Origin: Ignavibacteriaceae bacterium
GTDB taxonomy: Bacteria > Bacteroidota > Ignavibacteria > Ignavibacteriales > Ignavibacteriaceae
Direction of reading: 5' to 3'
Assembly: GCA_023231105.1 (NCBI GenBank)
Contig: JALNWB010000001.1
Span: 18,276-82,275 of the forward strand
DNA length: 64,000 bases
This document shows positions 22,058-45,300 of the stretch, piece after piece (the first letter of the stretch is position 1; each line of letters opens with the position of its first letter). A program made the position numbers and the translations under genes. Under the pieces are notes generated by a model, which had not been told where the DNA came from, did not search any database, and saw nothing but the letters and a program-made list of their open reading frames with translations.

Positions 22058-25000
22058 ATGTTTTTATATAAGTTACCGGATTATGAAGGGGGATTTGTTA
22101 CTAAATCTATTGAGTGCAATTGCATAGTAACAAGAGATGCAAACGGGCACTTGCTGGACAGTAAACCGGTTAATTGTGTAAAGAAGGGAGTGAAAACAAA
22201 TTTTGGAAAGGTTGTGGATTATTCGAAGAATTTTGTAATTCTGAAAAAAGGGACTGAGCTTAAAAGGGTGAAAAGGGAAGTTCTGAATAATATTTTGTTA
22301 AAGAGTTTGGAACAACCCGAGATAACTTTAGAAAAGATAAAGGTATCGGGAAAATTTAATACACTTGCGGGGAAAGTGTTGGTAAAAAGTGAAAGTGAAA
22401 TTGTTAGGGATGTATTAACTGATCCCGATAAAGTTTTGAGTAAGGGGAAAAGTGTTATTTTTTCTAAGACGATAAATGGGAAAGAGGTTGAGGCTAAGGT
22501 TGAGAAAACCTCAATGTTTATGAATACGTTTTTACATAAAAGTATAACCGTAAAGGAAAGTGTTGCGGCGAAAAGAATTTTAATAAAGGGAATTGCAACA
22601 ACGCTTAGAGCGCCGAAGGTGTTTAATATTCAGTCGGCAGTCGGCAGTAGGCAATCGACAATGGGTGGAACTGCATGGAACGCGAAAGGGGGAATGAAAC
22701 CGAATCATAAGTACATTGAACGGAAACCGGCGAAAAGTGGAGACGGGTATATTTATCTGTATGAACTCCCTTCCGGTAAAAAGGAATGGAGAGATGAAGC
22801 GGGAAAAGCTGTTGAGGGGGGACAGACGAGCGCCGATTATCAGTTGGAAGATTTTAAGGTGGGCGACATTGTTAGGCAGGATAATAAACTCGGCCGGATA
22901 ATGGAAGCATCAACAAATATGCTTGCGGTAAATTTCGGCGGGGAAATGAAGGTGATCAACAAAAAAGAGCATGTTGAAAAGGTTAAGCAGCATCAACTAA
23001 TGAAGGAAGGGGCCACGATGCAGTATGAGGGGAACGATGCAAAGATATTGAGGATAACCGGCAAAGCGGCATTGATAAACACGGCTGATAATAAGCTAAA
23101 GGTGATCAATCTTGAAAAGCAGTTGGAGAAATACGAACCGAAGAAAGAGGAGAAACGGTTAAATAAATACAGTGATGTTTACCAGGGTGAAGCGGAGCGA
23201 AGGATAGGGAGCGGGGGAGCGGATAATTACAACATCAGTTATGAAGAGCAGCCTAAGTATAAAAATTTTGTTGACGCGGCGAAGAAAACGGGATTTGGGA
23301 GAAAGAACGATCTTGAAATGGTGAAGCGCGTTGAAACGGAAAACGGGCTTAGAACGGTAAGGTGGAACTATAACCCGGAGGATCAGAATATTAGTTTTAT
23401 GGTTGACGGGAAAGAAGATTATACTATGAATTTTATGGGGAAGAAGTATAAAATAAGGGATATTACGGAAGACGGTTACAGTTTGGAAGATGCAGAAACT
23501 AAGGAACGGGGATTGTTCCTTTCTCACAAAGATTATAATAATGATTTGAAACAACAAAGAGACGAGGAGAGAAAGAATGTTGTAGTTGAAAGAACGGGAG
23601 GGGTGAACGGATTTGAAACGGTTAAAGAACCGGCGCGAACTTTTAGGTTTAAACCGGAATACAGTGATGAAGAAAAAGAAAGGTTTGAGAAACGAGGGGG
23701 AAGAAGACCGAGCCGATGGACGCGAAGAAAAGATGAACCTTTGCAAAGCGAAGAGGAGAAGAAACGATTAACTGAATTGCAGGACGAGAGGGATAAAAAG
23801 AATAAGGAAGTTTTGGGAACGAAGGATTTTGCAGACTTTGAGAAGTTACACAAAGAGAGAGGCTTTACAATTGGTGCAAATAGATTCCATGCAGCAAAAG
23901 AAATTGAGGCAGGCGGAAGAACATTCAGAATAAAGAGTGAGTTTAAGCCGGAGAAAATGAGCTGGCAGACTTCCATCGATGGACCTGTTAAGAAATTGCA
24001 GTTGGGAGAAAAACATTTACCGATAACGGATATTTCAAAAGATAAAGTTTTCTACCACGAAGGGGGGGATGAAAAAAGTATAACCTTTGATGAGTTGAAA
24101 ACGATTAACGGCAAGAGTTTGTTTGAACCCACAAAAGAGAGTAAAGGAATTGTAAGTAATTTAGATCCGGTGAAGATATATTTTGACGATAAAGATGTAA
24201 CGAGCGGGACTTATGAAATTGTTGAAGCTAATGAAATAATTGCTTCCCACAAAACGGATGGAACGCCAAACAGAGATTACACGATATCAGACGCGCAAAA
24301 TAGAGACCGCAGCACTCCGCAAAGTATTGCACAAATAAACAAGATCGCAGCGAATCCGAATTTTGACTTTTTAAGCGACAGTAAGACCGCGCAGGACGGC
24401 GCACCCATTGTTGATGAAGATTATAACGTAATTGCCGGGAACGGGCGGGGAATAGGCGTACAGCTTCATTACAGCAACAAAGGGGAGAAGTATCGAAATG
24501 ATCTGTTGAAAAAGGTTGAGAAGTACGGTTTTAGTCGAGACGATGTTGAGAAGATGAAACAGCCTATTTTGGTAAGGCGAACGAATGTTGACGCAAAAGA
24601 GGCGCAACGATTGGGAGCAATTAGCAATACCTCACAGATGCTTGCAACAGAGGAACGGGAAGCGGCAAAAGGAAAGGCAACAAGAATTGATGACGCTACA
24701 ATAAATAATTTAGCCGATATGTTCACAAAAGGGAACCATGAATCACTTAATCAATATTTGGATGAGATTGGACCGGATGTGGTAGGTGAGTTACTGAAGA
24801 AGAAAATTATCCCGGAGAATGAAGCGCACTTGTATATTGACCCGAAGAGCGGGAAAATGGATGCAGGGCACAAAGAAAAGGTTAAGCAAATATTAACGCA
24901 ATCGGTTTTGGGAGAGAGCAGTAAGCATTTTGAGAAGATACCGGAAGCGGCGAGAGCGGGAACGGTTAAAAGTCTTGGAGATATTTTTGCGCTGAAGGGG

Positions 25001-27154
25001 AAAGCGGGTGATCTTGTTCCTCACTTACAGGAAGCGATAAAGGTTTTAGCAAAGTATGAAGCGGTTAAGAATAACTTTAAATCGCCGGATGATTTTGTTA
25101 AGCAGGCGGCAAATGACGCATTTGAACCGTTGAAAGGAAGTAAAGAAGGATTGGCTTTATTTGATCTATTAGCAGACCCGATAAGAGAAGTAACGAAGGA
25201 AAACGGAAAGAAGGAAAAGAAAAACGTAATAAGTGATTTTATCCGTAAATATAAGTTAAGTTTAGAAGGGGATATGTTTGGCGAAGGCAAACCGGCGAAG
25301 GAAGCGTTTGATGAAGTGTTCAAGCCGAGGTACGAGAAGGGAGTGAATAAGAGTTTGTTTAGCAGATTGCGTATATTTGGTAAAAAAGTTTTTATGAAAT
25401 CTGTTGATACGACAAAGAATATTTTAGCGCCGAGTAAAAAGAATCCGGGTGTAAAACGTTGGCAAAAGGTTGAGAGCGGAAAGTTGAAAGTTGCAAGTGG
25501 AAAGGTTGAGGATAAAACACAAGTGACAAGTGACAAAAAGCAAGGGGAAGAAAAGATACGACTAAAAGATGTAACAAAATGGCATGAATACACAAAAGGA
25601 AGAATGATTGAAACAATTAGAAAAAATGCCGTAGAAGGATTAAATAAAGAAATAGATAAACATCAAGCAGAAATCAAATCATATGTATATGTTCCCGATC
25701 CTTATGATTTTCGTGATACAGAGAACCCAATAGAAATTAGTTTCTCGGGAAAAGAAAAAACAGGACAACCTATAATTATCAGGAATGGATTTGAATATAA
25801 ATTTGCATATCAGAGCAATAAATACGATAGATATGATAGATCACTCACAGATAAAGAGATGCAAGAAAAAACAGACAAGAAGAAAAAAGACATCCAATGG
25901 TTGATTGATTATAATAAAAAGAAAATTGACGATATTAATAATGGTTTGATAGATAATAAATTGTTTGACGAAGAGCAGAAAAGAATTGCAAAAGAAAAAG
26001 ACGACCGAGAAATTGAAATCGCAAATAAATTCTATCCAAGTAAAAGTCTTTCCCGATCTTTAAGGGATATAACAGGAAAGAAACTAGGTTTGTCTTTGCA
26101 CGACTTTCATGATGCAAAGGGTAATTCGGCGTATATAATAACTGATAAATTTAAAATACGATTTTCTGATCATGAGAGTAGAACTGAACAGGATTTCTAT
26201 AGATTGGATGAAAAGGATAAACCTTTTCGTCCAGTTGAATATGAACCAGAGGACATTGACATAATAATTTACAAAGACCGGAGAGGGGACGCTGTTGTTA
26301 CAATCGATGGGAATAACTATGGAATTGCGGATTATAATATTGATTCAATTGAAGATTTAAGCGAGTTCATACTTGAAAAGATAAATAAAAAAGTCGTTGA
26401 TTCCGTAGAACCAACGACTACAAATGAAAGCAAACCACAATCGCTTAAGACAGAGCCGAACGCTAAAAGCGGAGCGGATGACTTAGGCAGTGATAAACGT
26501 GCCGAAGCACAGACGAAAAGTAGTGAAGAGAAAGGAGAAAAGCAAATACCGCAAACGGAGACGGAGAATTTTAAGAAGTGGTTTGGGGAGAGTAAGGTAG
26601 TGGATAGTGAGGGGAAGCCGTTGGTGGTTTATCATGGCAGCAAAACACAGTTTGAGGTATTTGATAAAGTAAATGGCGAATCATCATCTTCCGGTAGATT
26701 TGAAGGGTTTCACTTTGGGACATTAGACCAAGCCAAAATGCGGAACGGTAAAATGGTTATGGCTCTGTTTCTAAAAGCTGAAAAATTACAACGGAGTAAA
26801 GATGAAGGAGGTAGGTGGTGGAAGAAAATTCAATCTGCAAAAAGTAGAAATTATGATGGCATAATTTATTTGAACAGATATGAAGGCATCCCTCTTGAAG
26901 AATATGATGAAGCAGAAAAACGAGGAGTTAAAACAGATGCCGATTCGCTTGATCGAATGAGTGATGAGCAATTTAGAAAAAATTTCCCATCAGCAAAAGA
27001 TAGCTATATCGTTTTTTCTCCAACTCAGATTAAATCCGCTATTGATAATGACGGAAGTTTTGATCCGGAGAATGCGGATATTACCAAGGGGACGAAAATA
27101 ACGAGGCGGATAATATTTAAGAAAAAGAAGAAGGATGAAACTTTTTTATTGTAG
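22058..27154 (+). CDS. polyvalent protein 1 (1698 aa): ParB/Srx-like domain plus C-terminal ART-PolyVal-like ADP-ribosyltransferase domain
   Basis: An HKYIERKPAKSGDGYIYLYE motif is present. A ParB-like block is present (YEIVEANEIIASH...QNRDR...INKIAANPNFDFL...GAPIVDEDYNVIAGNGRG). The C-terminus FKKWFGESKVVDSEGKPLVVYHGS...YIVFSPTQIKSAIDNDGSFDPENADI matches the ART-in-polyvalent-proteins signature as I recall it. Confidence 0.85.
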   Translation: MFLYKLPDYEGGFVTKSIECNCIVTRDANGHLLDSKPVNCVKKGVKTNFGKVVDYSKNFVILKKGTELKRVKREVLNNILLKSLEQPEITLEKIKVSGKFNTLAGKVLVKSESEIVRDVLTDPDKVLSKGKSVIFSKTINGKEVEAKVEKTSMFMNTFLHKSITVKESVAAKRILIKGIATTLRAPKVFNIQSAVGSRQSTMGGTAWNAKGGMKPNHKYIERKPAKSGDGYIYLYELPSGKKEWRDEAGKAVEGGQTSADYQLEDFKVGDIVRQDNKLGRIMEASTNMLAVNFGGEMKVINKKEHVEKVKQHQLMKEGATMQYEGNDAKILRITGKAALINTADNKLKVINLEKQLEKYEPKKEEKRLNKYSDVYQGEAERRIGSGGADNYNISYEEQPKYKNFVDAAKKTGFGRKNDLEMVKRVETENGLRTVRWNYNPEDQNISFMVDGKEDYTMNFMGKKYKIRDITEDGYSLEDAETKERGLFLSHKDYNNDLKQQRDEERKNVVVERTGGVNGFETVKEPARTFRFKPEYSDEEKERFEKRGGRRPSRWTRRKDEPLQSEEEKKRLTELQDERDKKNKEVLGTKDFADFEKLHKERGFTIGANRFHAAKEIEAGGRTFRIKSEFKPEKMSWQTSIDGPVKKLQLGEKHLPITDISKDKVFYHEGGDEKSITFDELKTINGKSLFEPTKESKGIVSNLDPVKIYFDDKDVTSGTYEIVEANEIIASHKTDGTPNRDYTISDAQNRDRSTPQSIAQINKIAANPNFDFLSDSKTAQDGAPIVDEDYNVIAGNGRGIGVQLHYSNKGEKYRNDLLKKVEKYGFSRDDVEKMKQPILVRRTNVDAKEAQRLGAISNTSQMLATEEREAAKGKATRIDDATINNLADMFTKGNHESLNQYLDEIGPDVVGELLKKKIIPENEAHLYIDPKSGKMDAGHKEKVKQILTQSVLGESSKHFEKIPEAARAGTVKSLGDIFALKGKAGDLVPHLQEAIKVLAKYEAVKNNFKSPDDFVKQAANDAFEPLKGSKEGLALFDLLADPIREVTKENGKKEKKNVISDFIRKYKLSLEGDMFGEGKPAKEAFDEVFKPRYEKGVNKSLFSRLRIFGKKVFMKSVDTTKNILAPSKKNPGVKRWQKVESGKLKVASGKVEDKTQVTSDKKQGEEKIRLKDVTKWHEYTKGRMIETIRKNAVEGLNKEIDKHQAEIKSYVYVPDPYDFRDTENPIEISFSGKEKTGQPIIIRNGFEYKFAYQSNKYDRYDRSLTDKEMQEKTDKKKKDIQWLIDYNKKKIDDINNGLIDNKLFDEEQKRIAKEKDDREIEIANKFYPSKSLSRSLRDITGKKLGLSLHDFHDAKGNSAYIITDKFKIRFSDHESRTEQDFYRLDEKDKPFRPVEYEPEDIDIIIYKDRRGDAVVTIDGNNYGIADYNIDSIEDLSEFILEKINKKVVDSVEPTTTNESKPQSLKTEPNAKSGADDLGSDKRAEAQTKSSEEKGEKQIPQTETENFKKWFGESKVVDSEGKPLVVYHGSKTQFEVFDKVNGESSSSGRFEGFHFGTLDQAKMRNGKMVMALFLKAEKLQRSKDEGGRWWKKIQSAKSRNYDGIIYLNRYEGIPLEEYDEAEKRGVKTDADSLDRMSDEQFRKNFPSAKDSYIVFSPTQIKSAIDNDGSFDPENADITKGTKITRRIIFKKKKKDETFLL
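22631..22665 (+). repeat. tandem heptamer array, CAGTCGG type (5 units), inside polyvalent protein 1
   Basis: The units are CAGTCGG CAGTCGG CAGTAGG CAATCGA CAATGGG. They encode QSAVGSRQSTMG. Confidence 0.9.
25470..25539 (+). repeat. tandem heptamer arrays, TTGAAAG type (6 units) then ACAAGTG type (3 units), inside polyvalent protein 1
   Basis: The first array is TTGAGAG CGGAAAG TTGAAAG TTGCAAG TGGAAAG GTTGAGG. The second, at 25519-25539, is ACAAGTG ACAAGTG ACAAAAA. Together they encode ESGKLKVASGKVEDKTQVTSDKK. Confidence 0.8.
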
Positions 27155-27172
27155 GTGAAAAAAAGATTATTT

Positions 27173-27705: not shown

Positions 27706-27722
27706 TTCATTAGTACGGTTGT

Positions 27723-27760: not shown

Positions 27761-27773
27761 ATTACGAATTCTC

Positions 27774-27794
27774 AATTAGGAATGAGGAATTATG
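27774..27794 (+). repeat. tandem heptamer array, AATTAGG type (3 units)
   Basis: The units are AATTAGG AATGAGG AATTATG. The last unit contains the ATG of the DPPY methylase. Confidence 0.8.
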
Positions 27795-28424
27795 CTTAGC
27801 GAAGCTTTTAATATTGATTGTATGGAAGGGATGAAACAGTTCCCCGATAAGTATTTTGAATTAGCTGTGGTTGACCCGCCGTATGGTTTGCCCAAAGATG
27901 CTGTACACGGTAGAGGCAAGCTAAAGGCGAGAGCAATAAATGCAATGGATATGGGATGGGATGTTGCCCCAAACGAAGATTATTTTAAAGAATTGTTTAG
28001 AGTTTCTGAAAAACAAATTATTTGGGGTGGAAATTATTTTGCGCTTATGCCTACAAGGTGTTGGTTAATTTGGGATAAAGAACAGCCTTTTGAAAATTTT
28101 AGCGCGTTTGAAATGGCTTGGACTTCTTTCGAGTCTCCGTCGAAAATTTACAGGCAAAGGACGGTTGAACCCGATCCAGATGGGAAAATCCATCCGACAC
28201 AAAAAACAATTAAACTTTACGATTGGATATTTATGAACTACGCAAAGCAAGGGGATAAGATTTTAGACACGCATTTAGGGAGTGGAAGCAGTAGAATATC
28301 AGCACACAAAGCTGGGCTTGATTTTACAGCGTACGAATTAGATAAAGATTATTTCGACAAACAGGAGAAACGCTTCAACAACTTTATTTCGCAATTGCAA
28401 TTAGATTTTGCGATTGCAATATAA
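27792..28424 (+). CDS. DNA N6-adenine-type methyltransferase (DPPY motif IV, small N6_N4_Mtase)
   Basis: Motif IV is FELAVVDPPYG and motif I is ILDTHLGSGSSRISAHKAGLDFTAYELD. Confidence 0.85.
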   Translation: MLSEAFNIDCMEGMKQFPDKYFELAVVDPPYGLPKDAVHGRGKLKARAINAMDMGWDVAPNEDYFKELFRVSEKQIIWGGNYFALMPTRCWLIWDKEQPFENFSAFEMAWTSFESPSKIYRQRTVEPDPDGKIHPTQKTIKLYDWIFMNYAKQGDKILDTHLGSGSSRISAHKAGLDFTAYELDKDYFDKQEKRFNNFISQLQLDFAIAI

Positions 28425-28436
28425 TTAGGAATAGGA

Positions 28437-28556
28437 ATGAACGGCAGGATGAGAATAGGCGAAGCTAGGTTTAGTTACTGGACAAATAGAGAGAGAAAAG
28501 AAGTTGCCGGGAATGAAGATCAATTTAATTTATTCACCCAGACCGAGGCAGCGTAA
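28437..28556 (+). CDS. possible small ORF (39 aa) coupled to the DarB-like gene
   Basis: The ATG follows TAGGAATAGGA, and the stop overlaps the next start (TAATG). It carries no motif. Confidence 0.25.
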   Translation: MNGRMRIGEARFSYWTNRERKEVAGNEDQFNLFTQTEAA

Positions 28557-31500
28557 TGAAATTATTTGGAATGACAATAGCAAAGAGTAAAGATAAACCG
28601 AAATTGCTTAAAGCATTCGGGGTAATATTAAAAGCCTTCGGTACGCAGTTAGGAATGTTTAATGATGAAGTGATTGAAGGGCAGACGAAGCAGAAAGACG
28701 GGCACAGCTATGTAGTTAAGAGAAGTAACAAGAATCCTCTTGTAAAAAGATTATTCAGGGCGGATAAGGAGGAGAGTAAGCCGAAGGAACTGAGTTTGTT
28801 TGATAAGAAAGTTACAGTAGGCAGTCGGCAATCGGCAGTCGGCAATCGGGCAGAAAGTAAACCACCGAAAGCGGAACCAATAAGACACACAGAGCAACCG
28901 GAAGCAAAGGACGATCTCTTCAATCAACCAAAGGAAGAGAGAAAAGAGCCGAAGGCAGAAATTAAAGTTGTTAAGGGGAAGAAAAACCGTAAAGAGATTA
29001 ACGCTAAGGTTGAGGAGTTATTAAAGACAAAGAAAAATGATGAGATGAGCGCTGAGGATGTTGAATTATTAGCGCAGTACACCGGACGCGGCGGATTGTT
29101 AGGAGATACGCTTGAGGATATCTCGCTTAATGAATTTTACACACGTAAGGATGAAGCGGAATTTATTTGGGATATGATAGGGAAGTTAGGTTTTAAGGGA
29201 GGAAATGTTTTAGAGCCTTCGATGGGAACGGGAATTTTTGTTGAGACAGCACCGGAGAAAGCGCTTGTAACCGGAATTGAGATTGAGGAGACGAGTGGAA
29301 GAATCGGACAGATTTTACACGGCAATGAACACGATATCAGAATTCAGAGTTTTGAACAGTTTGTAAAAGACTATGATAATATGGGAGCGGATTTAGAAGG
29401 GGGAGAATATGACGCGATAGTTGGGAATTGTCCGTTTGGTAAAAGGGGATTGAGCGCAATGGATGATAGGGAAAAGAGCGATATAAAATTCCATGAGCAA
29501 TATTTTATTGATCGAGGTTTGGATATGTTGAAGCCGGGGGGGATAATGGCAATGATCGTTCCAACAAGTATAATGGATAACCAACTTAATCAATGGCGGG
29601 GAGAGGTAAACAAAAAAGGGGAATTTTTAGGAGCAATACGAGTACCAACCGGAGCATTCAAACACACAGACGCGCAAGTAACCACAGATATAGTTTTCTT
29701 TAAGAAAAGACCGCCGGAAGTAATTGATCACTTGAACAAACTTTCCAAGGAAGAACTTGGGGAAGCTTATGACGATATGGTAATGGATGCTGATTTTGTT
29801 TCGGGGAATTTCTTTAAGAATAATCCGGAGTATGCATTGGGCACGGAAACAAGCGGAATGTTCGGAATGAAGATTTGGAAGGGAGATATTACAAAGGCTG
29901 ATCTTGAAAAAGTCGGTGAGTTATTAAACCATGAGGCAAGAGATTACAGCAGTTTAGGAATTGATGTTAGTAAATATGGTGAGTTAGAAAAAGAACTTGA
30001 ACCGGGAGATGTAAAGATATTAAACGGAAGAACTTACATACTTAATAAAAACCATAGATGGGAAAGATTGAAAGATCAGGAAGTAGTATTACAAAACTTA
30101 CCGGAAGACATTAAAAAACTTGGTATTACGAGTTGGGATGAATGGAGAATTAAGAGTGAGGACACAGCTTATTTATACGGTTTGGATAAGGACCAACTTA
30201 AACTTTTCGGACAAACAAGAATAGTTAATGAGCTGGATGGATACAACGGCAAGAATGATTTTCAGACGGAATATTTAACAAAGGGAGTTGTGTTAGGTTT
30301 AGCAGTAAAGGATTTCAGAAAAGAGTTGCAAGACGGAAGATTATCCGCTGAAGAGGCGCAAATGGAAGCGGGGAAACTGAAGATATTGCTAAAGGATTTT
30401 ATTGAAAAGTATGGACACCCGATTGAGAATTTAAAGTTAAATAAATTTTTTAAGAACAGCGGAAACGCGCCACTTCTTAATTTGGCAGGTAGCTATGATA
30501 AGAACGGCAACACTATCAAGATGTTTGATGATCCGCTGTCTTTTTATAAAGTTTATCAAACGAAGAGCGAAATAGGAACAGTTGATAGGAATAATATTGT
30601 TTCGGTAATCGGTTTTCTTTTTGCAAATAATTTTCCAACGGATTATCAAACGGTACGAGGCGAGTATGAGGGGGATGGAGATATTGAAAGAGAGCTTGCA
30701 TATAGCGATGAAATTTATTTTGATGAAGAAGGAAATTATAAACCGAAAGAGGAAGTCCTTTACGGTTACATTTACGAAAAAATTGACGCTTGGGAAAAGC
30801 AACGAACCGAACTGAAGAAGGAATCCAAGAACGAAAAGTTAAGCGATAAAGAAAAAGAACTTAACGCGCAAAAAATGCGAAAGCTCGAAGATCAGATAAT
30901 TGAGGCGAAGACGAGAGCGAATATCAGGGAGATTAAGCAGCTACCAATAATGTTAAGCGATGCAGGGAGTATTTACGATATTGGTATTTTAAACAAATAT
31001 TTGGAAGAAAAGATAGGGGCGCATTTCTTAGGTGAATTACGCAAAGATGAAAAGAGTGGTTTCATTCTTCCGGTTGATGAGAGTTCGGCAAAATTATATT
31101 TAAGTTATGCAGATATTACGAAAGAGGGGAAATCAACAGATGTAAAACGGGAATTGCGGGATCTCTTTAATAAAGATGAGCATCCGTTGTTATTTATGAT
31201 TTTAAATAAGATGAATGGATTAGGTTTACCGGCATTACGGACAGAGGAAGGGATTGCTAAGAAAGAACAAGTCTTACAACTTGAAACAGATTTTAAGCAG
31301 TATTTATCCGATAGTGAAGAAGCTGATAAAATTGCAGATACTTATAACAGGTTGTTTAATTCTTACATACAAAAAACGTATGATGAAAAACCGATAGAGG
31401 GAATAAAGCATTTTGCTTATGATAGAGTAGTTGGAAAAGACGCAAGCGGAAAAGATATAACCGGAAAAGATAAGGCGGGCGGGCATACTTGGGCAACGGT

Positions 31501-35500: not shown

Positions 35501-35983
35501 ATGGAAGTGTGTGACGTAGACGAGGAAGTGTTAGAAAAGTTAATAAAAGAATTTACTGATGAATTTGGTGAAGAAGTGCTTAAGGAGGTTTACCGATTTC
35601 ACCGGAAATTAGCTAATAAAATGTATGTGAAGAATTTTCCGGCAGCGGAAATTTATCATAGACTTTTGATTAAAGATATCCGCAATGGTAAGTATGCAAA
35701 TATGAGTGTACGTGCAATTGCGGCGATTGAAAAGGTTAGTGAAGGTACGATCTATAACATTATCGGGAAAGCGTGTAGAGTTAAGAAACCGATTTATCAA
35801 TACTCGGTTAGGGGTAAATTAATAAAGAAATGGAACAGCGGAACGGAAATAGAAAAAGAATTGGGCTATAATGCAAGTCCAATACGGGCAAGCTGTAGAG
35901 AGGGGAACGATAGAGCGACTTATGGTTTTGTTTGGAGATACCAGGAGCTAACGGGAGAAGAACTTTTGGCAATTAGGAATTAG
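35501..35983 (+). CDS. DNA-binding protein: HTH plus NUMOD1-like module, no nuclease domain (candidate transcription regulator)
   Basis: MSVRAIAAIEKVSEGTIYNIIGKA is an HTH resembling sigma region 4 or resolvase. PIYQYSVRGKLIKKWNSGTEIEKELGYNASPIRASCREGNDRATYGFVWRY matches the NUMOD1-type DNA-binding module of homing endonucleases. Confidence 0.5.
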   Translation: MEVCDVDEEVLEKLIKEFTDEFGEEVLKEVYRFHRKLANKMYVKNFPAAEIYHRLLIKDIRNGKYANMSVRAIAAIEKVSEGTIYNIIGKACRVKKPIYQYSVRGKLIKKWNSGTEIEKELGYNASPIRASCREGNDRATYGFVWRYQELTGEELLAIRN

Positions 35984-35984
35984 G
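35971..35984 (+). repeat. heptamer pair, AATTAGG type
   Basis: The units are AATTAGG AATTAGG. The pair contains the TAG stop of the gene at 35501. Confidence 0.75.
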
Positions 35985-36026
35985 ATAAAGTTTACATTAT
36001 TTTTACAAGATAAAAAGGAGCTTCAA

Positions 36027-36574: not shown

Positions 36575-37951
36575 TTGAATAACACGTTTGAATTTTTTGC
36601 ACCGGCTTATTTGGTTAAAAGCGGAAGTAAAACCGAACCTTACAAGGTTGGCGGAACAATTTCTACAGAGAACCGGGATACTGATAATGAAATAATGAAG
36701 AGTATCGATTGGAGTTATTTCACTTCCGGTTTTGGCAAAATTAAATACGAACATAAGGATATCCCAGAACCGCATTGTTTTATTGGCTTTCCGACAAAGT
36801 TAGGGAAGAGCGGGAAATCATGGAACTTTGAAGGAGAACTTGTTGCATACGATCCGGAATTGCCGGATGAGAAATTAACACAACAGCAAAAACTTGCAAA
36901 AAGCACGGTTACTCTTTTACAGCACATGGATGAATTTAATAAACGTCATCCAAATGCGATGCAAAAAGCGGGATGGAGTGTTGAGGGAGAATATTTGTCG
37001 AAAAGCAAGGACGGGGTTGTTTCGGCAAGAGTTGTAAATGTAGTATTTACAACTAAACCACGGAACAGAGAAACGTTTGCAAAATTAGTTAAGAGTTTAG
37101 AAGTGGGGTATGGAATGACACCCGATACACAAACGGGATTTGGGGCGACAAGAAAAGAATCAATTGATCATAACATTAAACTAAATGGAGTTACAAAAAT
37201 GGAAACGAAAAATGATGTGTACAAAAAATGCTTAGCCAAAGGGATGAAACCGGAAGAGGCTAAGAAAGCGGCTGATGAATTTGAAGCAAAGCAAAAAGGA
37301 GAGATGAACGAAAGTTTTGAGACCGCTGCAAAATCATTGGGCACGGCGAAATTATCTCTTCAAAAATCGCTTGATACAGCTAAATCAATCTCTGAAATAG
37401 AGTTTGAAGTTGATATTAAAGCGCAGGAAAAAAGTTTGCAAAAATCAATCGCGCTGATGAACAAAGGCGGAGAAGAAGCAGATATTTCCGATTACCTTGA
37501 AAAATCCTCTGAAATTTCTTTGAACGCATTGAAAGCGCTGGACGCAATTAATCAAAAAGTTGATCTGTTGGCAAAATCGATTGTTCTTTTAGCAGAAGGA
37601 CAGTTGAATCAAGTCTCAGGTGATGAACATTTGGTAAAATCTCTTGATTTGGTGAATAACCAAGTTGAAGATCAACGGATGGGACTTTTAACCTTGGTGA
37701 GCAAGCTTAGAAAAAGTACCGGCAATAATTTGTTGACCGACAATATCACTTTTGCTGAAAACAACAAGGATTTAGGGACAGGCGTAGAACTTAACAAAGC
37801 GCAAAAAGTAAAAGTGCTTGAAAAATTGGTTGCGGAAAAATCGGTTGACGAAATTGTTTTGGTTGACTTTAGCGCCGGTGGTACACAGGCAACTTTGCCG
37901 GAATCGGTTGAACAGTTGGTGAAATCAAAAGCTGTTGACATGTTCAAGTAA
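36575..37951 (+). CDS. prohead protease (HK97/S78-like) fused to coiled-coil scaffolding domain
   Basis: A TTG start follows late element copy B. KIKYEHKD is the His region, AGWSVEGEY is a G.S.G-type Ser region, and VVNVVFTTKPRNRETF corresponds to the evSlV..PAn strand. The C-terminal 270 aa are helical and Lys/Glu-rich, as expected of a scaffold. Confidence 0.65.
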   Translation: MNNTFEFFAPAYLVKSGSKTEPYKVGGTISTENRDTDNEIMKSIDWSYFTSGFGKIKYEHKDIPEPHCFIGFPTKLGKSGKSWNFEGELVAYDPELPDEKLTQQQKLAKSTVTLLQHMDEFNKRHPNAMQKAGWSVEGEYLSKSKDGVVSARVVNVVFTTKPRNRETFAKLVKSLEVGYGMTPDTQTGFGATRKESIDHNIKLNGVTKMETKNDVYKKCLAKGMKPEEAKKAADEFEAKQKGEMNESFETAAKSLGTAKLSLQKSLDTAKSISEIEFEVDIKAQEKSLQKSIALMNKGGEEADISDYLEKSSEISLNALKALDAINQKVDLLAKSIVLLAEGQLNQVSGDEHLVKSLDLVNNQVEDQRMGLLTLVSKLRKSTGNNLLTDNITFAENNKDLGTGVELNKAQKVKVLEKLVAEKSVDEIVLVDFSAGGTQATLPESVEQLVKSKAVDMFK

Positions 37952-38019: not shown

Positions 38020-39453
38020 ATGGACGATTTAATGTTTGGCGAACTTGCCGTAAACGGATCAGCTTATGGCGGCGCATCAACAGTAAAAGAACTCCAGGAC
38101 TTAGCCAAAGCTCTTGAGGTTGGTTATGCGATGGGGACAACGGACCAAACCGGATTTGGAGCCACAAGACTTGAAAGCCTTGACCCGGTTGTAAAATGGC
38201 TTACCCTAAACGAATCTTCCCCGGCATTCTTTAGAGCAATACGAAAAGGGAAGGCTTCCAGCACGGTTGAAGAATTTGTAACCATGAATGAGGTAGGAGA
38301 TGCTAATTTTTATTCTGAAGGCGGATTACCGGACGAATATGATGAAGATATCCGAAGAGAATTTGAGCAGGTAAAATACATCGGAACCGTAGGTAAAATT
38401 CCTTTGCAGGCTTTAATGGTAAAAAGCAATACCAATAACGAAGCGCTTGTTACAAGAGCCAAAGCACTTGCGATAATGAAAACCGCAGATAGCAAAATAA
38501 TCTATGGTGATGCTGCTCGTAATCCTTACGAATGGAATGGTTATTACAAACAATTTAAAACAAAAGCAAAGAATGTAAGCCAAAACACAATTGATTTGCG
38601 CGGTAAACGTGTTAGACCGGAAACCTTAAATGAATCGGTACAAATTATTGCCGATAACTGGGGAAACGCAAATAACGTAAAATGCTGGATGAGCGCCAAA
38701 GATTTTCAATTTTATACCGATGAATTGTTAGCCGGTAGAAGATTTGTGGTAGGAAGTTCTGAAGCCCGTGATCTTATCGCTTCCGCGAAAAGATTTGAAC
38801 TTGGGAACGGAAAAGGAAATATTGAAACCGATATTCTTTTGAAATACAAGGGTCAAAATTATATAGGCGCAGAGTATCCTAAAACAAACACCGCGATGAC
38901 AGTATTTGCAGCAACAAACAGCAAAGCACCAGCCACCCTTAACTCAAGCACTGCAACTATTTCAGTTGATACTGATGCAGCTACCTTGCTTGACGCAGCA
39001 ACTTACGATTACGCATTTGTACCGGTTAATAAATACGGTGCGGGCGCAGCATTTGAAGTTAAAACAAACGTTGTTGCAGCTTCTAAACGCTGTACTTTTA
39101 CCTTAACTGATAACGGTTCACCTTCAGGACAAGAAGCAACAAGTTTTGATATTTACCGTAAACTTTCATCCGCAACTGCAATTACAAGTTATAGATATTT
39201 AACTTCGTTTACAGCAGCCGAAGCAAAGATCGATAACGGTGAATGGATACCGGGAGCGACTAATATTTTCTTATGGGATTGGGACTTTGAACAAGTACTC
39301 GATTTCCGTCAATTACTGCCAATGACTAAGATGGGATTGGCTCAAATTGATGATTCCAAGAGATGGATGCAAAAATTATGGGCAGTGCCGATTCTTGTAG
39401 CACCAAACAAAATGGTGATGATAAAGAACGCGGGTTCTACTGCTTGGGCTTAA
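38020..39453 (+). CDS. major capsid protein
   Basis: This 477-aa protein lies directly after the protease-scaffold gene, and GGAG lies upstream of its ATG. A large hairpin follows it. Its N-terminal segment shares a 26-aa motif with the protease-scaffold protein. Confidence 0.7.
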   Translation: MDDLMFGELAVNGSAYGGASTVKELQDLAKALEVGYAMGTTDQTGFGATRLESLDPVVKWLTLNESSPAFFRAIRKGKASSTVEEFVTMNEVGDANFYSEGGLPDEYDEDIRREFEQVKYIGTVGKIPLQALMVKSNTNNEALVTRAKALAIMKTADSKIIYGDAARNPYEWNGYYKQFKTKAKNVSQNTIDLRGKRVRPETLNESVQIIADNWGNANNVKCWMSAKDFQFYTDELLAGRRFVVGSSEARDLIASAKRFELGNGKGNIETDILLKYKGQNYIGAEYPKTNTAMTVFAATNSKAPATLNSSTATISVDTDAATLLDAATYDYAFVPVNKYGAGAAFEVKTNVVAASKRCTFTLTDNGSPSGQEATSFDIYRKLSSATAITSYRYLTSFTAAEAKIDNGEWIPGATNIFLWDWDFEQVLDFRQLLPMTKMGLAQIDDSKRWMQKLWAVPILVAPNKMVMIKNAGSTAWA

Positions 39454-39539: not shown

Positions 39540-39971
39540 ATGGTTAAGCATACATACCTTAAAAATTTAACGTTAAATGTACCAACTTCCGTTAACAGTA
39601 CGGGCAAACTTCACTTGGATGAAGACGGTTGTATAGTTGAGGAATTGAGTTTTGAGCAAGAGAGCGAATTGATTGATCACCCGGATTTTGTTACAGTAGA
39701 AAGTGAAAAGTCGCAAGTAGAAAGCAAAGAGTTGCAATCCGCCGAAGGCGGAGAAAGTAACGATCAAGAGAACAACCAAGAGCAAGAAGAAAAAACCGCA
39801 GAGCAAGAGAGCGGAGAAAATTCTGAAGGGAAAGCCGGGGAACAATCCGAAGACGAACTAAAAGAATTGGATACTAAAATTGTAAACGGGAAAGGGTTCA
39901 TCTACAAGAAAAACGTGAAAGATGTTTTGATGTGGTTACGGCATCCAGAGCTTGATGAAAAGGGTAAATAA
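39540..39971 (+). CDS. hypothetical highly acidic protein
   Basis: A low-complexity tract is present (ESEKSQVESKELQSAEGGESNDQENNQEQEEKTAEQESGENSEGKAGEQSEDE). Confidence 0.5.
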   Translation: MVKHTYLKNLTLNVPTSVNSTGKLHLDEDGCIVEELSFEQESELIDHPDFVTVESEKSQVESKELQSAEGGESNDQENNQEQEEKTAEQESGENSEGKAGEQSEDELKELDTKIVNGKGFIYKKNVKDVLMWLRHPELDEKGK

Positions 39972-40331
39972 ATGTTGGTAATAGAAGTGTTGATTTATCT
40001 TGCCGCTGTTTTTTTGTTGACGGCGTTTGGAGCGTTACTTTATATTGTATTGACTAATCCGTACAGAGATAAATTATTAAAAAGATTAGATACAATGTTA
40101 TGCGAGAAAGACGGTTTTTGGAGTAGTACCCGTTTCAGATTTCTCTTGGAAACACTTATTGCTAACGCATCATTTTGGGGATTGGTAATTTATCTAACCA
40201 TAAAGAACAGCAAATTTCCCAACATCCCGGAAAGCATTTTAATTGCTTACGGAGGCATACAGATAATTTCAGCAGTATTAAAATTTAAACAGAAAACCGT
40301 TGAGACGGAAGAACCGGCAGAAGAGAAGTAG
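39972..40331 (+). CDS. small membrane protein (3 predicted TM helices)
   Basis: The predicted helices are VLIYLAAVFLLTAFGALLYIVL, ANASFWGLVIYLTI and ILIAYGGIQIISAVL. Confidence 0.5.
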   Translation: MLVIEVLIYLAAVFLLTAFGALLYIVLTNPYRDKLLKRLDTMLCEKDGFWSSTRFRFLLETLIANASFWGLVIYLTIKNSKFPNIPESILIAYGGIQIISAVLKFKQKTVETEEPAEEK

Positions 40332-40340
40332 AGATGTGCA

Positions 40341-41417
40341 ATGAAGACAATAAAAAAAGGGATTTCACAACTTATAACCCTTGATCAGACATTATTAGGC
40401 AGCGGAAAACACGTTTACTTGACGATGATCGGTGAAGACGGTTCGGTGATTAAAAACTCTTCAGCGGCAGATATAAAAGATTTATCACTTTCCTACAACG
40501 CAACTTCATCTCTCTATGAAGCAGCCGTAACTGTAGCCTCGGATGAGCCGGAACAATATGTCCGGCTCTTCTTTTATGCTACAGACGCGAACGTAGAGAA
40601 TAAATATTATCCGGAAGATGCAAAATTGGAAGCAGTAGCCGGCATAATTACAACCGAGGCTGAAATTGTACCGGTACAGTTTTTTATTGATTATGTTCTG
40701 GCTTCTTCAAGCAGATTAGACCCGGCGTATGAAGCGGCGATAACGGCTTTTTCGGAGGATAGAGCGGGATTAAGAAGTTACTTAAAGAGCGCACAAGATA
40801 CTCTTGAAAAACAATGCGAGCTTTATTTTACCGAACGGACAAAGACCGAGAACCGTGATAATTATTTTGAAAAATTCAGTATGAATCTTTGGCAAATACA
40901 AGTTTATAACCCACCAATAAATGATTTAACAAGTGTAAAGATAAAGTACGGCAATACCGAGTTAATGGGTATTGGTGTTGATCTTTTTACGTTTGACCGC
41001 ATGACGGGAATAATTGAATTTTTACCTTTACCAACTGGTGGAACAGCAGGGCTTTATACTTTGCTGTTAGGCAGTTTAAGCGCGTTGGGTTTATCTGTTT
41101 TAACCGGCGGAGCGCTGGAACGGATACCAAACTTTTTTGAGGTAACGTACAAAACGGGGTTAGTTTATGCAGGCGCAGACCCGTTTGAAGTTGAAGGGAT
41201 AAGACAGGCTATTTGCCGCAGAGCATTCCTAAGTTTGGTCCATCATGTAGATCCCGCGGCAAGAGTAGTTAGCGAAAGTGAAAGCATTGACGGAGTTGCA
41301 AGCAGTATTAGTTCGGGAGTTGCTAAGGTAATTACCGAACTGAAACAGGACGAAGTAAGTTATTTAAACGGTTTGCGGCAGAAGTACGGGAAGAACTTTA
41401 ATGTAGTTATCGGGTAA
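40341..41417 (+). CDS. virion structural protein (head-completion/neck candidate, by position)
   Basis: The ORF sits in the head module and has no recognisable motif. Confidence 0.45.
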   Translation: MKTIKKGISQLITLDQTLLGSGKHVYLTMIGEDGSVIKNSSAADIKDLSLSYNATSSLYEAAVTVASDEPEQYVRLFFYATDANVENKYYPEDAKLEAVAGIITTEAEIVPVQFFIDYVLASSSRLDPAYEAAITAFSEDRAGLRSYLKSAQDTLEKQCELYFTERTKTENRDNYFEKFSMNLWQIQVYNPPINDLTSVKIKYGNTELMGIGVDLFTFDRMTGIIEFLPLPTGGTAGLYTLLLGSLSALGLSVLTGGALERIPNFFEVTYKTGLVYAGADPFEVEGIRQAICRRAFLSLVHHVDPAARVVSESESIDGVASSISSGVAKVITELKQDEVSYLNGLRQKYGKNFNVVIG

Positions 41418-41443
41418 TTAGGAATTAGGAATTAGGAATAAAC
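41416..41443 (+). repeat. tandem heptamer array, AATTAGG type (3 perfect units plus 1 degenerate)
   Basis: The units are AATTAGG AATTAGG AATTAGG AATAAAC. The array starts inside the TAA stop of the gene at 40341. Confidence 0.9.
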
Positions 41444-41575
41444 TTGGAACAATATTTTGAAGCCGTTAGAAAATTGCCGGTTGGGGATTGGAAAGTAATT
41501 GCGGAGTTCCATAGGATAATTATGAATTATAAAAAGATGAAGCGGTTAGCTGATAAGCATAAAATAAAATGTTAA
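41444..41575 (+). CDS. possible small ORF (43 aa, TTG start)
   Basis: An open frame begins directly after four AATTAGG-type heptamers and overlaps the next start. It is weakly supported. Confidence 0.2.
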   Translation: MEQYFEAVRKLPVGDWKVIAEFHRIIMNYKKMKRLADKHKIKC

Positions 41576-42360
41576 AAATTATTGATGAAAATATTGTACG
41601 GAGTCTAAGACGGTTCGGGCAAACGGTAAAGCATTACCCGGGCACGTTGTGCAGTTGCATTGGTGAAAATAACGGTGTGCCGTTATTAAACCATACTTGC
41701 AACCAGGGTTATTATTACGGAGCGCCGGAAACAATTATTGCAATACGCACGGCGATATCTTACAAATACCTAAACACGCCGCAAGGGGTAATTTATGACG
41801 GAGGCGCAACATTTACCATCCCAAGATTGAATTTAAGCGGAGCCGAACAGAGAGCTTATTCTGTTATTACGCACGGAGATATTTTGGTTTGTGATAATAA
41901 GACCAGACGTGACACAGATATACTGAAGCGTGGAACCCGTGATTTTATTTACGCTTTTGATATTACCGAAGTAATTGGCATATACCGTAACAACACAAAA
42001 TATGATGCAACGGATTACACAATTATTGAGGATGATTATAAAACGTTACTTGGTGATGACGGTTTACCGCTTACCGATGAGAACGGAGTACCAACGGGAG
42101 AAGTAAGAGACAAAGCGGATATTGTGGGTAAATTAATGGCGGTTGTTTGGGCAACCGGCAAAGGACCGGCAACGGGTGAAAGTTACACGGTGGAATTCAT
42201 TTGTGCTCAACAGTTTAAAGTATGGGAAGATGCGGGAAGTGATAGGGGAACGGATGAAAACAGACTACCGAAAAAGATGCTTACCGTATTAAGAAGATTT
42301 GTTACACCGGTGGAAAATAACCTTGACACCGTAGAAACGACACAGGAGTTGTACACATGA
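41569..42360 (+). CDS. virion structural protein (by position)
   Basis: An ATG ORF coupled by ATGA to polyvalent protein 3. Confidence 0.45.
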   Translation: MLKIIDENIVRSLRRFGQTVKHYPGTLCSCIGENNGVPLLNHTCNQGYYYGAPETIIAIRTAISYKYLNTPQGVIYDGGATFTIPRLNLSGAEQRAYSVITHGDILVCDNKTRRDTDILKRGTRDFIYAFDITEVIGIYRNNTKYDATDYTIIEDDYKTLLGDDGLPLTDENGVPTGEVRDKADIVGKLMAVVWATGKGPATGESYTVEFICAQQFKVWEDAGSDRGTDENRLPKKMLTVLRRFVTPVENNLDTVETTQELYT

Positions 42361-45300
42361 TAATTACATTATTTGGAAAGTCAATAAAATTTGGGAAGAA
42401 CCCGAACCAGATAGATATGTTTGCAACCGCCGGAGCGGAAAAGGAATTTGCGCCAGGGGATAAACGCAGACTTGAACTTACAAGCGGCGGGAAGTTGCGT
42501 TGGAAGAATGCGGATGAGGAAGGGAGTGGAAAGTTGAAGGTTGAAAGTGGAAAGAATGCAACTCCGAACAATCAAAACATTAGAGAGGAAAAAGGTTTAT
42601 TCAAAGAAGCGTATGAACAAACGCAAGATGAATATGCGCAAAAGATGTTCAGAGGACCAATAGCTGAAGTTAAAAAATTTAAAGACCCGAATGATTTGGA
42701 AGATATTGCAATCTCTAACGAACAGCACAAAGTTATTATTAAACACGCTATTCGAGAAGGTAAAGAGATCCCGGATGCAGTAATTGAACCTTACAAAAAT
42801 TCGCATTGGGCGAAGGAATATTTGAGTAAAAAAGTTGATTACTCACAAGAGCTTATAAACACCGCGCAAACAAGTAAGACTTTCGATAAGTTTTTAACAA
42901 ATGTTAGAATCCATGTATTCCCAAACGAGTTTCTTAAAAAAGAGTTGGGGTTAGGAGATGACAACGTACAAAATAGAAAAAAACTTAATGACTATTACAA
43001 CAGGCAAAAAGCAGAGCATAGAGAACAACGTAAAAAAGATAAAGAAGAAGGGGATAAGGCAATTGCCGAATTGCATGTAGATCAAATAGAAAAATTAGCA
43101 CTTCAACAGTATGGCGGGAAAGTGGGGAAAGAAAAAAAGATTGATGATGATAAAATTGCAGAGTTGTATAGGAATAGCCCGATATCTATTCAAGTGGATA
43201 AGATGAGCAATAAAGCGCAAGAAATTTATAATAACGCCGGGAACCAGGCAGAAAAACAAATTGCATTTGATCTTTGGAATTATGGGAATGGGATACAGGA
43301 TGAGTTTGTAGAAAAGTACGTTAAAGGGGAAAAGATAAGTACTGAAGATGTTATGGAAGTAAAGAGAATTGCAAACATATTGATAAAAGGCGCTGATGAA
43401 GAATTTGAGAAAGTAAAAAATGGGAGTAAGGCAAAAATTACGATCAAGAAAAAGAAAGAAGAGCCGGTTAAAAAAGAACCTTGGGAGAGAACTTTATCGG
43501 ATATGATACAAAATGAAATTACAAACCGTGAAATTTTTGGACCGGAAAGTTATCCTAAATGGATAACGGATAATACTAAAGTGGAAATTGCAGACCGAAG
43601 AACCGGAATTGTTTATGATCATTTTACTCTTGCAAGCCCAACACAGGAAAGATTAAAACATTATGGGAAACTTGCACATTATGAAATTATAAAGCGAGCC
43701 TTAGTTGACGGCAAGCCCGTACCGCCGGAAGTGTTGAGGGATTATCCGGAGTTGGAAAAGGAAACTTCACTTATAAGTGAATTACCTTTTACTGCATCAT
43801 TAAAAAAAGATTTAGAAAGTTACGGCGAAAAGACAAAAAATATTTTAGTTGAAGGGACGTATCAACCATTTGCTGATTGGTTTAAGAAACAATACCCGGA
43901 TCAAGAATTTAAAATCGGTAAACATCAAGATGGAGGACCATTTATCGCTATAACTGGAGGAGGAGAAATTAGATATTCAGCTTATCAGAAAGATAATTCT
44001 GAAAACGAAATAAAATTATCAAAGTTAAAAAAACGGAAAGAAGTTCTTGGGGAAAAACTTTACTCCGAGAAACTTAAAAATCACAAGAAAGTATCTAATA
44101 TTGGTTTTGGCACAAATATGAGGGGATATCAAAAAACGAAACAATTAAGTTTTAGAAGAGAAGATGAATTGCAACAAAAAATAAAAGAGATTAACGAAGA
44201 AATAAAAGATTTATTACCAAAGAATGTTAGTGAATCAAATAAAAGCATCTTCAAAAATTTATTTAAAGCCTTTGGGAAACAAATATCAATGTTTGGAGCG
44301 CAGCCATATCAAAAGGAAGGGCAGACGAAAGAGGGACGCGGAGGCACGTTGAAATTAACGAGGGACAGCTCGGGAAAGGGAGCGCATTGGAAGTTAGTCG
44401 GCAAAGGGCAATCGGCAGTGGACGGTCAGCAGTCGGCAGTTGGCAGTGGGCAAGAAAAACAAACTGGCGGAAAGATAATTACTCCGGCTAATGCTTTTGA
44501 ATTGTTGCAGGATAAAATTGGTAATAGTGTGTTACTGCAGGACAATGAAGGAAACTTGTTAGGTGAGGGAGCGTTACAGCTTGTGAACGAAAACAGTGAA
44601 GGCAATTATTCTTTGTTCTTAAAAGAGGCAAATGGATTTGATTCTCTCGTATCGATACCAAAGAACCAGGCAGTTGTACAGAAGGAAGACGGGATAAGTT
44701 TTAAGTTTGCAGATAAGAATATTTTAATATCAACAATTGAGAAAAGCAAAATTCCCAATAAGCCGGTTGAAATGGAAAAAGCCGAAGAGAACGCGAAACA
44801 TGCGCGTAACTTAGAGAAGATGCGGAATTTTAACGAATGGCAAAAGAAAGCCGACAGTTATGCAAGAACAGCGAACGGGCAAAAGGATTGGTTTTTTGGT
44901 GATATGGAAATTGCCGCCGACGCTGAAGGTTTAGAGTTTGGAGTGAAGAACCGCATCATTAAAAAAGCCGATACACTGTTTAAGGAAATAAAGAGGAACG
45001 CAACAAGGGATGATAAGGCTGAGATATACAGCGCACTAATCGGAGCATTTGAAGTGAAAAGCGTTGCTAAGGCAAAAGCTGTTATTTCCAACTTAAAGAA
45101 GAAGGGGTATGAAATAGACGCTGATCAGTTGGACCAACCGAAGGATAAAGAAAACTTTTTTACAAGGATAAAAATAAGCAAAGGGGAAAACGATCCTTTG
45201 CCGAAGGAGTTGCAGTTTGCAACCGGTGAATATGCCTTGGCATTTGAAGAGTGCGCGAAGAAACCAAATCCTTTAAGAGAAACAGAAATGAGTTTGGGCT

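Follow-up and report, generated by a model that had tools for sequence, protein, structure and literature searches.

The window analyzed here, a 64,000-nucleotide (nt) stretch of an Ignavibacteriaceae bacterium assembly (GCA_023231105.1, contig JALNWB010000001.1, positions 18,276 to 82,275), is a segment of a phage genome with its genes on the plus strand, and it encodes three giant proteins in which a short conserved leader followed by a low-complexity linker recurs, N-terminally and internally, ahead of different domain blocks. With a probability of about 0.6, this leader and linker cassette is the seam of a modular phage effector system, in which led units have been fused and units are exchanged at the seams. 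The leader would head an effector unit at its N-terminus, separate genes in other phages would carry single units, and the giant open reading frames (ORFs) would have arisen by end-to-end fusion of such led units. Gain, loss and swapping of units would take place at three positions, namely the upstream edge of the leader, a point just past its FGK element, and the linker that follows.

Polyvalent proteins, the class to which the three giant ORFs belong, are thought to be the first weapons delivered by a phage, and the proteins of the window probably enter the host together with the phage DNA. A defined leader heading each unit would offer a handle for unit boundaries and new effectors, a candidate common address tag for packaging or clamp docking, and possibly a natural plug-in site for foreign cargo in phage particles.

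Giant proteins and their leaders

The three giant ORFs bear effector or enzymatic domains that are signatures of the polyvalent class, two in one polypeptide in proteins 1 and 2, and their genes lie in the packaging and head neighborhood, near the portal, MuF-like, protease and capsid genes. Protein 1 (22058-27154, 1698 amino acids (aa)) matches the Pfam families ddrB-ParB (E 1e-26) and ART-PolyVal (E 6e-15), and consists of an N-terminal module, a conserved ddrB-ParB core, an internal leader with its linker, a variable module, the ART-PolyVal domain and a conserved C-terminal tail. Protein 2 (28556-34672, 2038 aa) is built from an N-terminal tag, leader, linker, an Eco57I-type N6 methylase and an SNF2 helicase (both Pfam), the same domain content as DarB of phage P1. 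Protein 3 (42357-46385, 1342 aa), which was compared with the related locus L018 and the database proteins P0002-P0023, comprises a leader, a linker, modules of no assigned family, a second leader and linker, a beta-rich module X, a Zeta-toxin kinase (Pfam Zeta_toxin, E 2e-11) and a truncated C-terminal leader. Homologues also bear LPD1, RadC-JAB, GNAT and RelA_SpoT domains, and Pfam scans of the segments between cassettes returned nothing further. The three proteins resemble the polyvalent proteins of Iyer, Burroughs, Anand, de Souza and Aravind (2017; PMC5512222) in being giant multi-domain mosaics with the same kinds of domains and with portal or MuF neighbors. That paper does not appear to describe a conserved leader or junction cassette, and a search of its text for "linker" and "low-complexity" found neither term, so the leader cassette appears to be undescribed while sitting within a known class.

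The leader was sought with a profile built solely from sequences outside the window and scanned against the ORFs of all six frames. By this profile the window holds three solid copies of about 55 aa: one in protein 2 (aa 14-73, 28595-28774; KPKLLKAFGVILKAFGTQLGMF...EGQTKQKDGHSYVVKRSNKNPLVKRLFR; E 7e-15), one at the N-terminus of protein 3 (42357-42524; MIITLFGKSIKFGKNPNQIDMF...GGKLRWKNADEEG; E 3.8e-6; 92% aa identity to L018), and one inside protein 3 (aa 628-684, 44238-44408; KSIFKNLFKAFGKQISMFGAQPYQKEGQTKEGRGGTLKLTRDSSGKGAHWKL; E 1.3e-19). A fourth copy, in protein 1 (aa 1097-1142, 25346-25483; NKSLFSRLRIFGKKVFMKS...KKNPGVKRWQK), is degenerate and gives only a partial match at E 0.16, the E value of 6e-16 obtained with the seed profile being circular. 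The external profile matched no other site in the window. The initial annotation had proposed a fourfold recurrence of this leader; its quoted peptides and arrays are all present where it placed them, and the recurrence holds for the three solid copies, the protein 1 copy being the weak member. Leave-one-out profiles made from the window copies alone were weak and barely recovered the copy left out.

The protein 1 leader retains FGK and KKNPxVKRWQ and is devoid of QLxLF and EGxTK. It belongs to the same subtype as the LLPSKKNPxVRRWQ leaders of L008, P0005, P0006 and P0012, and three of these, L008 (KAFGRQLSLF...LLPSKKNNNIRRWQK), P0005 and P0012, are intermediates that tie it to the other leaders. 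A further, truncated leader (KKPAIKAFGKEF, 46329-46364) ends protein 3; in P0006 the same position runs on as a full leader (GIKAFGKSINVGKNSLLPSKKNPNVRRWQ) and then into a further module, and by this sequence comparison the C-terminal KKPAIKAFGKEF is the stump of a further leader.

An exhaustive profile search among 1.84 billion representative proteins gave 22 matching clusters at E < 0.001. Many of these 22 leader proteins hold two or three copies, either N-terminal or internal, and their consensus reads (L/F)KAFG-x-Q-(L/I)-x-(L/M)-F, 5-15 variable residues, EG(Q/E)TK..G..L.... and a terminal (H/R)W. The leader falls outside all Pfam families, those of the LPD group included.

Module boundaries in related phages

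The window was compared with 18 related loci (L series) and the 22 database proteins (P series), a comparison that the initial annotation had put forward for its idea of module shuffling. Swaps, insertions and deletions do break at the cassettes, and several breakpoints in the DNA fall inside the tandem heptanucleotide arrays that encode the linkers. Thirty of 65 homology boundaries found by BLASTP fall within the cassette intervals, which account for about 8% of the combined length of the three proteins; these boundaries are not all independent events, and the sequences downstream of them differ. They comprise 8 of 17 boundaries in protein 1 (aa 1111-1165), 12 of 20 in protein 2 (aa 78-117) and 10 of 28 in protein 3 (aa 619-635).

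Residues 1 to about 1110 of protein 1 are conserved in seven relatives at 49-86% identity, and beyond the leader and linker at least five different modules make up the C-terminal part. Similarity ends just past FGK, at residues 1111-1116, in L002, L008 and L009, and inside the linker in L001 (1151), L004 (1156) and L003 (1165). At the DNA level, homology ends at 25477 (L003), 25500 (L001) and 25504-5 (L004/L010), within or at the edge of the array at 25475-25504. A module with the pattern E(F/K)xxKHPRxxxG(K/R)F...YETPLG is C-terminal in the L002 homologue of protein 1 (~17500-18298) and lies near the N-terminus of the L008 homologue (~14480-15180), so that one effector module is found at two different seams.

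Polymorphic toxins carry short pre-toxin motifs at their junctions, VENN in CdiA and DPxGL in Rhs. The leader cassette is, by analogy, closest in function to these motifs: as in the MuF polymorphic toxins (PMC5576092), a short conserved sequence sets the constant part off from exchangeable C-terminal modules, with breakpoints at this border. It differs from them in being repeated within one protein, in also heading stand-alone proteins and in having no sequence similarity to them. A text search of the MuF toxin paper for "linker", "conserved motif", "junction" and "recombination" found none of these terms. Neither immunity genes nor orphan cassettes were noticed downstream of proteins 1-3, no systematic search for them having been made.

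In protein 2, the DNA homology shared with the L002/L012 group breaks off at 28842, within the array. Directly after this array and its K/P-rich tail, L010 and L011 carry a 153-aa ART-like module and L012, L013 and L015 a 90-aa module, and L009 has an 86-aa insertion after residue 84. The leader of protein 2 is internal in all relatives, where a module of about 150 aa lies between MKLFGMTIAKSK and the leader; the window protein lacks it. This module (KGSIRRGVNDDGTKWETFMH...FDEQK.MLGF), presumably pyrophosphatase-like by its look, occurs in L010-L016 (~3530-4000), P0010, P0014-P0016 and P0022, and its deletion in the window (28556-28600) is clean, with a 2-3 nt overlap.

For ten homologues of protein 3, similarity starts at aa 619-635, where the internal leader begins. 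In five of them (P0006, P0009, P0011, P0012 and P0013) this start coincides with the N-terminus of the homologue or lies no more than about 35 residues from it: P0009 and P0013 begin exactly with the leader, P0011 and P0012 bear it 14-28 residues from the N-terminus, and P0006 may be truncated, because its leader begins on V. These stand-alone proteins bear out the view of the giant ORFs as concatenations of independently led units.

Conservation and predicted structure of the leader

Between protein 3 and L018 the leaders are 0.90-0.92 identical in aa sequence, and the linkers only 0.57-0.63 (0.57 for the N-terminal one). Among identical residues of the leaders, 0.24-0.29 of the codons differ synonymously. 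The catalytic modules have the same values for both measures, so the leader is constrained as protein and not as DNA. In P0023, at 59% overall identity, the leader is kept and the linker is unrelated, and the internal leader of protein 3 is well kept in P0003, P0005, P0007 and P0023 despite strong overall divergence. Because purifying selection on the protein extends to these internal copies, the leader would have a function for each unit rather than serve as a single entry ticket for the whole protein.

The leader would consist of an amphipathic helix ending in K-A-F-G, a Q-L-x-(L/M)-F motif in a disordered stretch, and a beta-hairpin that runs from EG(Q/E)TK...G..L.. to (H/R)W. AlphaFold2, applied to residues 621-887 of protein 3, predicts a helix over KSIFKNLFKAF, disorder around QISMF (predicted local distance difference test (pLDDT) < 50), a small three-stranded beta unit (pLDDT ~60), a disordered linker (26-33) and a folded beta-rich domain (70-80).

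The degenerate leader of protein 1, the truncated one at the end of protein 3 and the hypervariable linkers would also be expected if the leaders were decaying fusion relics and the arrays neutral slippage in low-complexity sequence, without specific function. This is very unlikely given that L018 matches the internal leader of protein 3 at about 90% identity, that P0023, P0003, P0005 and P0007 keep it, and that QLxLF is enriched 24-fold in the leader proteins.

Several points weigh against the cassette as a seam between led and exchangeable units. Some seams have no cassette, as at PQTETENF before the ART domain of protein 1, in the replacement of aa 250-460 of protein 3 and at two intein insertions. 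The clustering of breakpoints in linkers may stem from tolerance, that is, from selection, and not from a sequence that promotes recombination. The fourth leader is degenerate, and the structure model is shallow, with two aligned sequences and a mean pLDDT of 53. In more distant homologues the linkers are ordinary K/E/Q/P-rich low-complexity sequence lacking array-type peptides, so the cassette can do without the heptamers. What the leader does is read from motif resemblance.

Candidate functions of the leader

The inferred function of each unit's leader would be docking, with QLxLF as the contact, on the beta sliding clamp of the host or on the inside of the capsid. A leader that acts as a capsid-targeting signal, a prohead-protease processing site or both, with units recruited to the procapsid and cut at the junctions, is possible but doubtful. 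For P1 DarB, likewise a methylase-helicase, 30 N-terminal residues are enough to direct packaging (PMC9024508). As with the capsid-targeting signals of DarB and the T4 internal proteins cited there, the leader sits at the N-terminus of putative head-internal proteins, a DarB-like methylase-helicase among them, and is common to several cargo proteins of one phage. In T4 the prohead protease removes such signals. The leader takes the N-terminal position in proteins 2 and 3 and in the stand-alone homologues P0009 and P0013, and proteins 2 and 3, like many homologues, open with M..(I/L)K(I/L)FGK(S/A). Likewise consistent with capsid targeting are the persistence of MKLFGMTIAKSK in the window although the adjoining module is deleted, the nearby portal, MuF-like, protease and capsid genes, and the similar tripeptides in the protease-scaffold end AVDMFK and the capsid start MDDLMFGE. 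The leader differs from the established signals in its internal copies, two in the window and many in homologues, which are as conserved as catalytic domains where one signal per protein would suffice. Moreover, a conserved unit of 55 aa with a hairpin far exceeds a cleavage site, and the protease cannot be assigned to a type and has no known cleavage consensus. A QFNLF of the same form ends the methylase remnant at 28437-28556 and its full-length relative in L014, and a stand-alone methylase (12137-14041), upstream of the portal and outside the head block, ends in the related non-canonical MLNLF.

Dalrymple (2001) reportedly identified QLxLF as the motif that binds the bacterial beta clamp. 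UmuC has QLNLF, and the alpha subunit of E. coli Pol III has QADMF. The 22 leader proteins contain 48 instances of Q[LIMFVQT].[LMI]F where 2.0 would be expected (24-fold), and the window contains 4 where 0.8 would be expected, all in proteins 2 and 3. The window instances include TQLGMF, KQISMF and NQIDMF, and the whole set contains QLSLF, QLNLF, QLDLF, QLDMF, QLSMF, QISMF, QIDMF and QLGMF. P0017, P0018, P0020 and P0021 have three to six motifs per protein. These instances fit the clamp consensus Q-L-x-L-F, QLSLF being the full consensus (PMC4549789).

This resemblance makes it a tentative possibility, compatible with the cassette as a seam, that the leader core is a putative beta-clamp-binding motif, by which the units would dock on host DnaN to act on DNA or forks, or would block the clamp. 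The pentapeptide is the same, its context may likewise be disordered, going by the shallow model of two aligned sequences, and mobile elements make use of it: the clamp motif lies in unstructured regions and is found in transposases of nine insertion sequence families (PMC4549789), and the MuC protein of phage Mu is reported as a further user (PMC12867686). Also in keeping with clamp docking, the phage segment encodes a replisome organiser and SSB without a polymerase or clamp, and the L014 methylase and the window remnant end in QFNLF(T/I)(Q/K)TEAA. Here the motif differs from its known uses in having multiple copies per protein, in lying inside a larger leader and in being attached to effectors with no replication link; Zeta toxin, RelA/SpoT-like, GNAT and ART effectors have no obvious connection to DNA. 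Clamp binding does not account for the conserved KAFG element and hairpin, the stand-alone methylase tail is a non-canonical MLNLF or MQNLF, and the host is tentatively Bacteroidota at best.

A bolder version, in which each unit has its own beta-clamp-type docking peptide (KAFG-x-QLxLF plus hairpin), the phage delivers a multivalent clamp binder and the arrays serve as recombination seams, is rather unlikely. If true, the multivalent binder would either block the clamp or hold toxins, ADP-ribosyltransferases and a methylase-helicase at the DNA of host or phage.

Heptanucleotide arrays

Period-7 arrays were located with Tandem Repeats Finder (TRF). The window has 5 perfect period-7 arrays against 0.06 expected in third-order Markov simulations, other periods giving 0-1, and 9 occurrences of (AGT N4)x3 against 0.25, 8 of the 9 on the coding strand. 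These arrays are the top direct-repeat DNA families in the 17-47 kb region. Family A (unit CAGTNGG) encodes the cyclic peptide QSAVGSR and family B (unit AAGTNGA) encodes SGKLKVE; both have a common AGT core in the same phase, and arrays at unrelated loci are 83-90% identical over 32-38 nt.

The three cassette linkers that follow the solid leaders are encoded by arrays on the plus strand: protein 2 has a family A array encoding VGSRQSAVGNR (28814-28850; TRF 28815-28849), and protein 3 has a family B array encoding SGKLKVESGK (42524-42555; TRF 42525-42554), which has 84% identity with the array of protein 1 over 38 nt, and a family A array encoding GQSAVDGQQSAVGSGQ (44396-44452 by TRF, 8.1 copies; predicted disordered, pLDDT 26-33), whose counterpart in P0023 is a wholly different sequence. 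The protein 1 linker VESGKLKVASGKVE...TQVTSDKK is encoded by family B arrays, AAGTTGA/AAGTGGA and then ACAAGTG (25469-25536; TRF 25479-25509 and 25519-25536, plus strand). Protein 1 has a further, hypervariable linker (aa ~191-200), in which a family A array (CAGTCGG; 22629-22657, TRF 22631-22657, plus strand) encodes QSAVGSRQS; relatives differ there in sequence and by indels, and L008 has a KAFG-like motif just upstream.

Other plus-strand arrays lie in ORFs without a leader, namely a family A array in the low-complexity C-terminal region of the portal protein (19156-19190; QQAVGSDQSAVGNG), unique to the window since relatives have QQSAMGGGG there, and a family B-like array (39687-39724) in the ORF at 39540-39971 (VESEKSQVESKE). 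A GAAAGTA array at 15487 is intergenic. Close relatives show indels in the linkers of protein 1 and of the portal protein.

At least 119 other, unrelated viral contigs (L020-L138) came up in an exact search for CAGTNGGx3; they are mostly of high G+C content (median 62%), often with several arrays on both strands and outside ORFs; over their 1.05 Mb there are 293 period-7 arrays and at most 26 of any other period. In about 20 of these contigs a common, conserved frame of ~300 codons, ...VQLAVGSWQKLPTEPSPCFYSLS, runs across the array. The heptamer array had been taken for a dedicated part of the cassette, which does not fit its presence genome-wide, in leaderless ORFs, between genes and in other viral contigs; judged from the sequences, heptamer coding of the linker is a lineage feature. 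With variable linkers and lineage-limited heptamers, the conserved architecture is the leader plus a disordered linker. Similarly, the claimed nucleotide conservation of the junctions holds for the arrays (83-84% over 35-38 nt) and fails for the leaders, given their synonymous divergence.

In the proposed seam, the disordered linker would vary freely and, in this lineage, be filled by (AGT-N4)n arrays, a repeat class tolerated only in linkers and between genes. The arrays would supply 30-40 nt of 83-90% identity between otherwise unrelated junctions, where exchange would be favored. As a dispersed repeat class, the arrays occupy linkers because these tolerate them, and they may promote exchange in that way. 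They provide an instance of dispersed repeats and recombination breakpoints meeting inside genes.

Dispersed tandem heptanucleotides are known from bacteria. Cyanobacterial STRR repeats are similar in kind, with the units CCCCAGT, TTGGTCA and CAACAGT; the window units are CAGTNGG, AAGTNGA and AATTAGG. Geobacter metallireducens has 49 intergenic and intragenic heptanucleotide elements, the function of which is not known (PMC2700814). The window arrays resemble both sets in having 3-10 tandem 7-nt units in many copies, between and within genes, and differ in unit sequence, in being phage-borne and, within ORFs, in being confined to disordered linkers.

With the Geobacter elements as precedent, the arrays might be functional as cis-acting DNA or RNA sites, read for example by a protein that recognizes a trinucleotide every 7 nt, the peptide being irrelevant. 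The (AGT N4)x3 pattern that unites both families, mostly on the coding strand, the intergenic arrays directly upstream of start codons and the dominance of period 7 in the other viral contigs are in line with such sites. They are nevertheless unlikely, as units vary freely, arrays come and go among close relatives, and within ORFs the frame in use alone is free of stops; most differences between relatives in the protein 2 array are synonymous, a hint that the peptide is under some constraint, and a HutP-like (TAG N4)x3 site, looked for separately, occurs just once.

Four other roles were considered and rejected. Universal in-frame adapters open in three frames are incompatible with the stops in the unused frames. 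For intergenic relics of gene fusion the unit pattern fits and the order is wrong: the array comes after the leader, and stand-alone homologues likewise have leader, then linker, then module. As internal translation starts the arrays do not serve, since an ATG follows just one of them (at 22661) and is not conserved. A phase-variable contingency locus is not indicated either, the sole copy-number difference seen being +21 nt (three units) within the protein 2 array of L010, with all relatives in frame.

Tandem AATTAGG heptamers occupy the gene junctions at 16875-16898, 20636-20660, 22038-22057, 27773-27794, 28423-28436, 35966-35987 and 41413-41442. They overlap the upstream stop codon, end 3-15 nt before the next start, offer TAG in all three frames and contain AGGA; at one junction the window has AATTAGG units and L004 has AAGTGGA units.

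Genomic setting and additional features

By PHROGs assignments the window encodes a replisome organiser, SSB, terminase-like proteins, DNA methylases, and tail and baseplate genes, and no polymerase or clamp gene was found within it. On the plus strand lie a terminase-like gene (9605-11629), the portal (17514-19313), a head-maturation protease fused to a scaffold-like part (36575-37951) and the major capsid protein (38020-39453). The ORF at 19597-20649 (plus strand) is MuF-like by inspection of its sequence only, PHROGs and Pfam giving no match. A relative of the portal protein on a 346-kb contig of a Bacteroidetes metagenome-assembled genome is a weak clue to the host, the assignment being that of this one contig. 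Megablast of the protein 2 DNA against deposited phages gave no match, and word-index protein searches gave one match each.

The protease-scaffold (37050-37190) and the capsid protein (38100-38190) have a segment LEVGY(G/A)M..(D)TQTGFGATR.ES in common. The scaffold C-terminus AVDMFK (37930-37951) and the capsid N-terminus MDDLMFGE (38020-38045) are both kept in close relatives, the only ones that turned up when more distant capsid and scaffold homologues were sought to check conservation of the D(L/M)F ends.

An acidic ...EAA tail recurs on methylase-related proteins: the methylase at 12137-14041 ends in MLNLFDQPEEEAA (13999-14041), the remnant ORF in DQFNLFTQTEAA (28515-28556), protein 2 in LRGEAA (34655-34672) and distant protein 2 homologues in EFEEAA. 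This common tail may be a C-terminal signal or a degron. The remnant, a 39-codon ORF at 28437-28556 (MNGRMRIGEARFSYW...QFNLFTQTEAA), resembles the first ~4 and the last ~33 residues of a methylase joined together; its full-length counterpart, a methylase of 360-570 aa, has the same position in relatives. The remnant is directly preceded by another, different methylase gene (27792-28424), and its own stop codon runs into the protein 2 start (TAATG).

A second recurrent motif, (I/L)(K/R)xA(I/L)xxGKx(I/V)PxEVLxxYP(D/E)LxxE, occurs twice in protein 3, at aa ~133-165 (~42750-42850) and ~445-475 (~43690-43780), as well as in a 40-aa insertion of L003/L004 just upstream of the protein 1 leader and at the C-terminus of P0010. 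The last ~25 residues of protein 1 (TKITRRIIFKKKKKDETFLL; 27080-27154) are kept in relatives regardless of the preceding module (L012 ~750-827). In L010 (1045-1377), L011 and L014 a zincin-like HExxH module comes first and this tail lies in an overlapping ORF of its own, pointing to a frameshift or a split gene. Inteins interrupt protein 2 homologues at methylase motif I (EPS-C...HN-CGTGIF) in L012, L013 and L015 (L012 ~4930-6060) and, in P0016, at the helicase GLGK motif (~residues 1010-1400).

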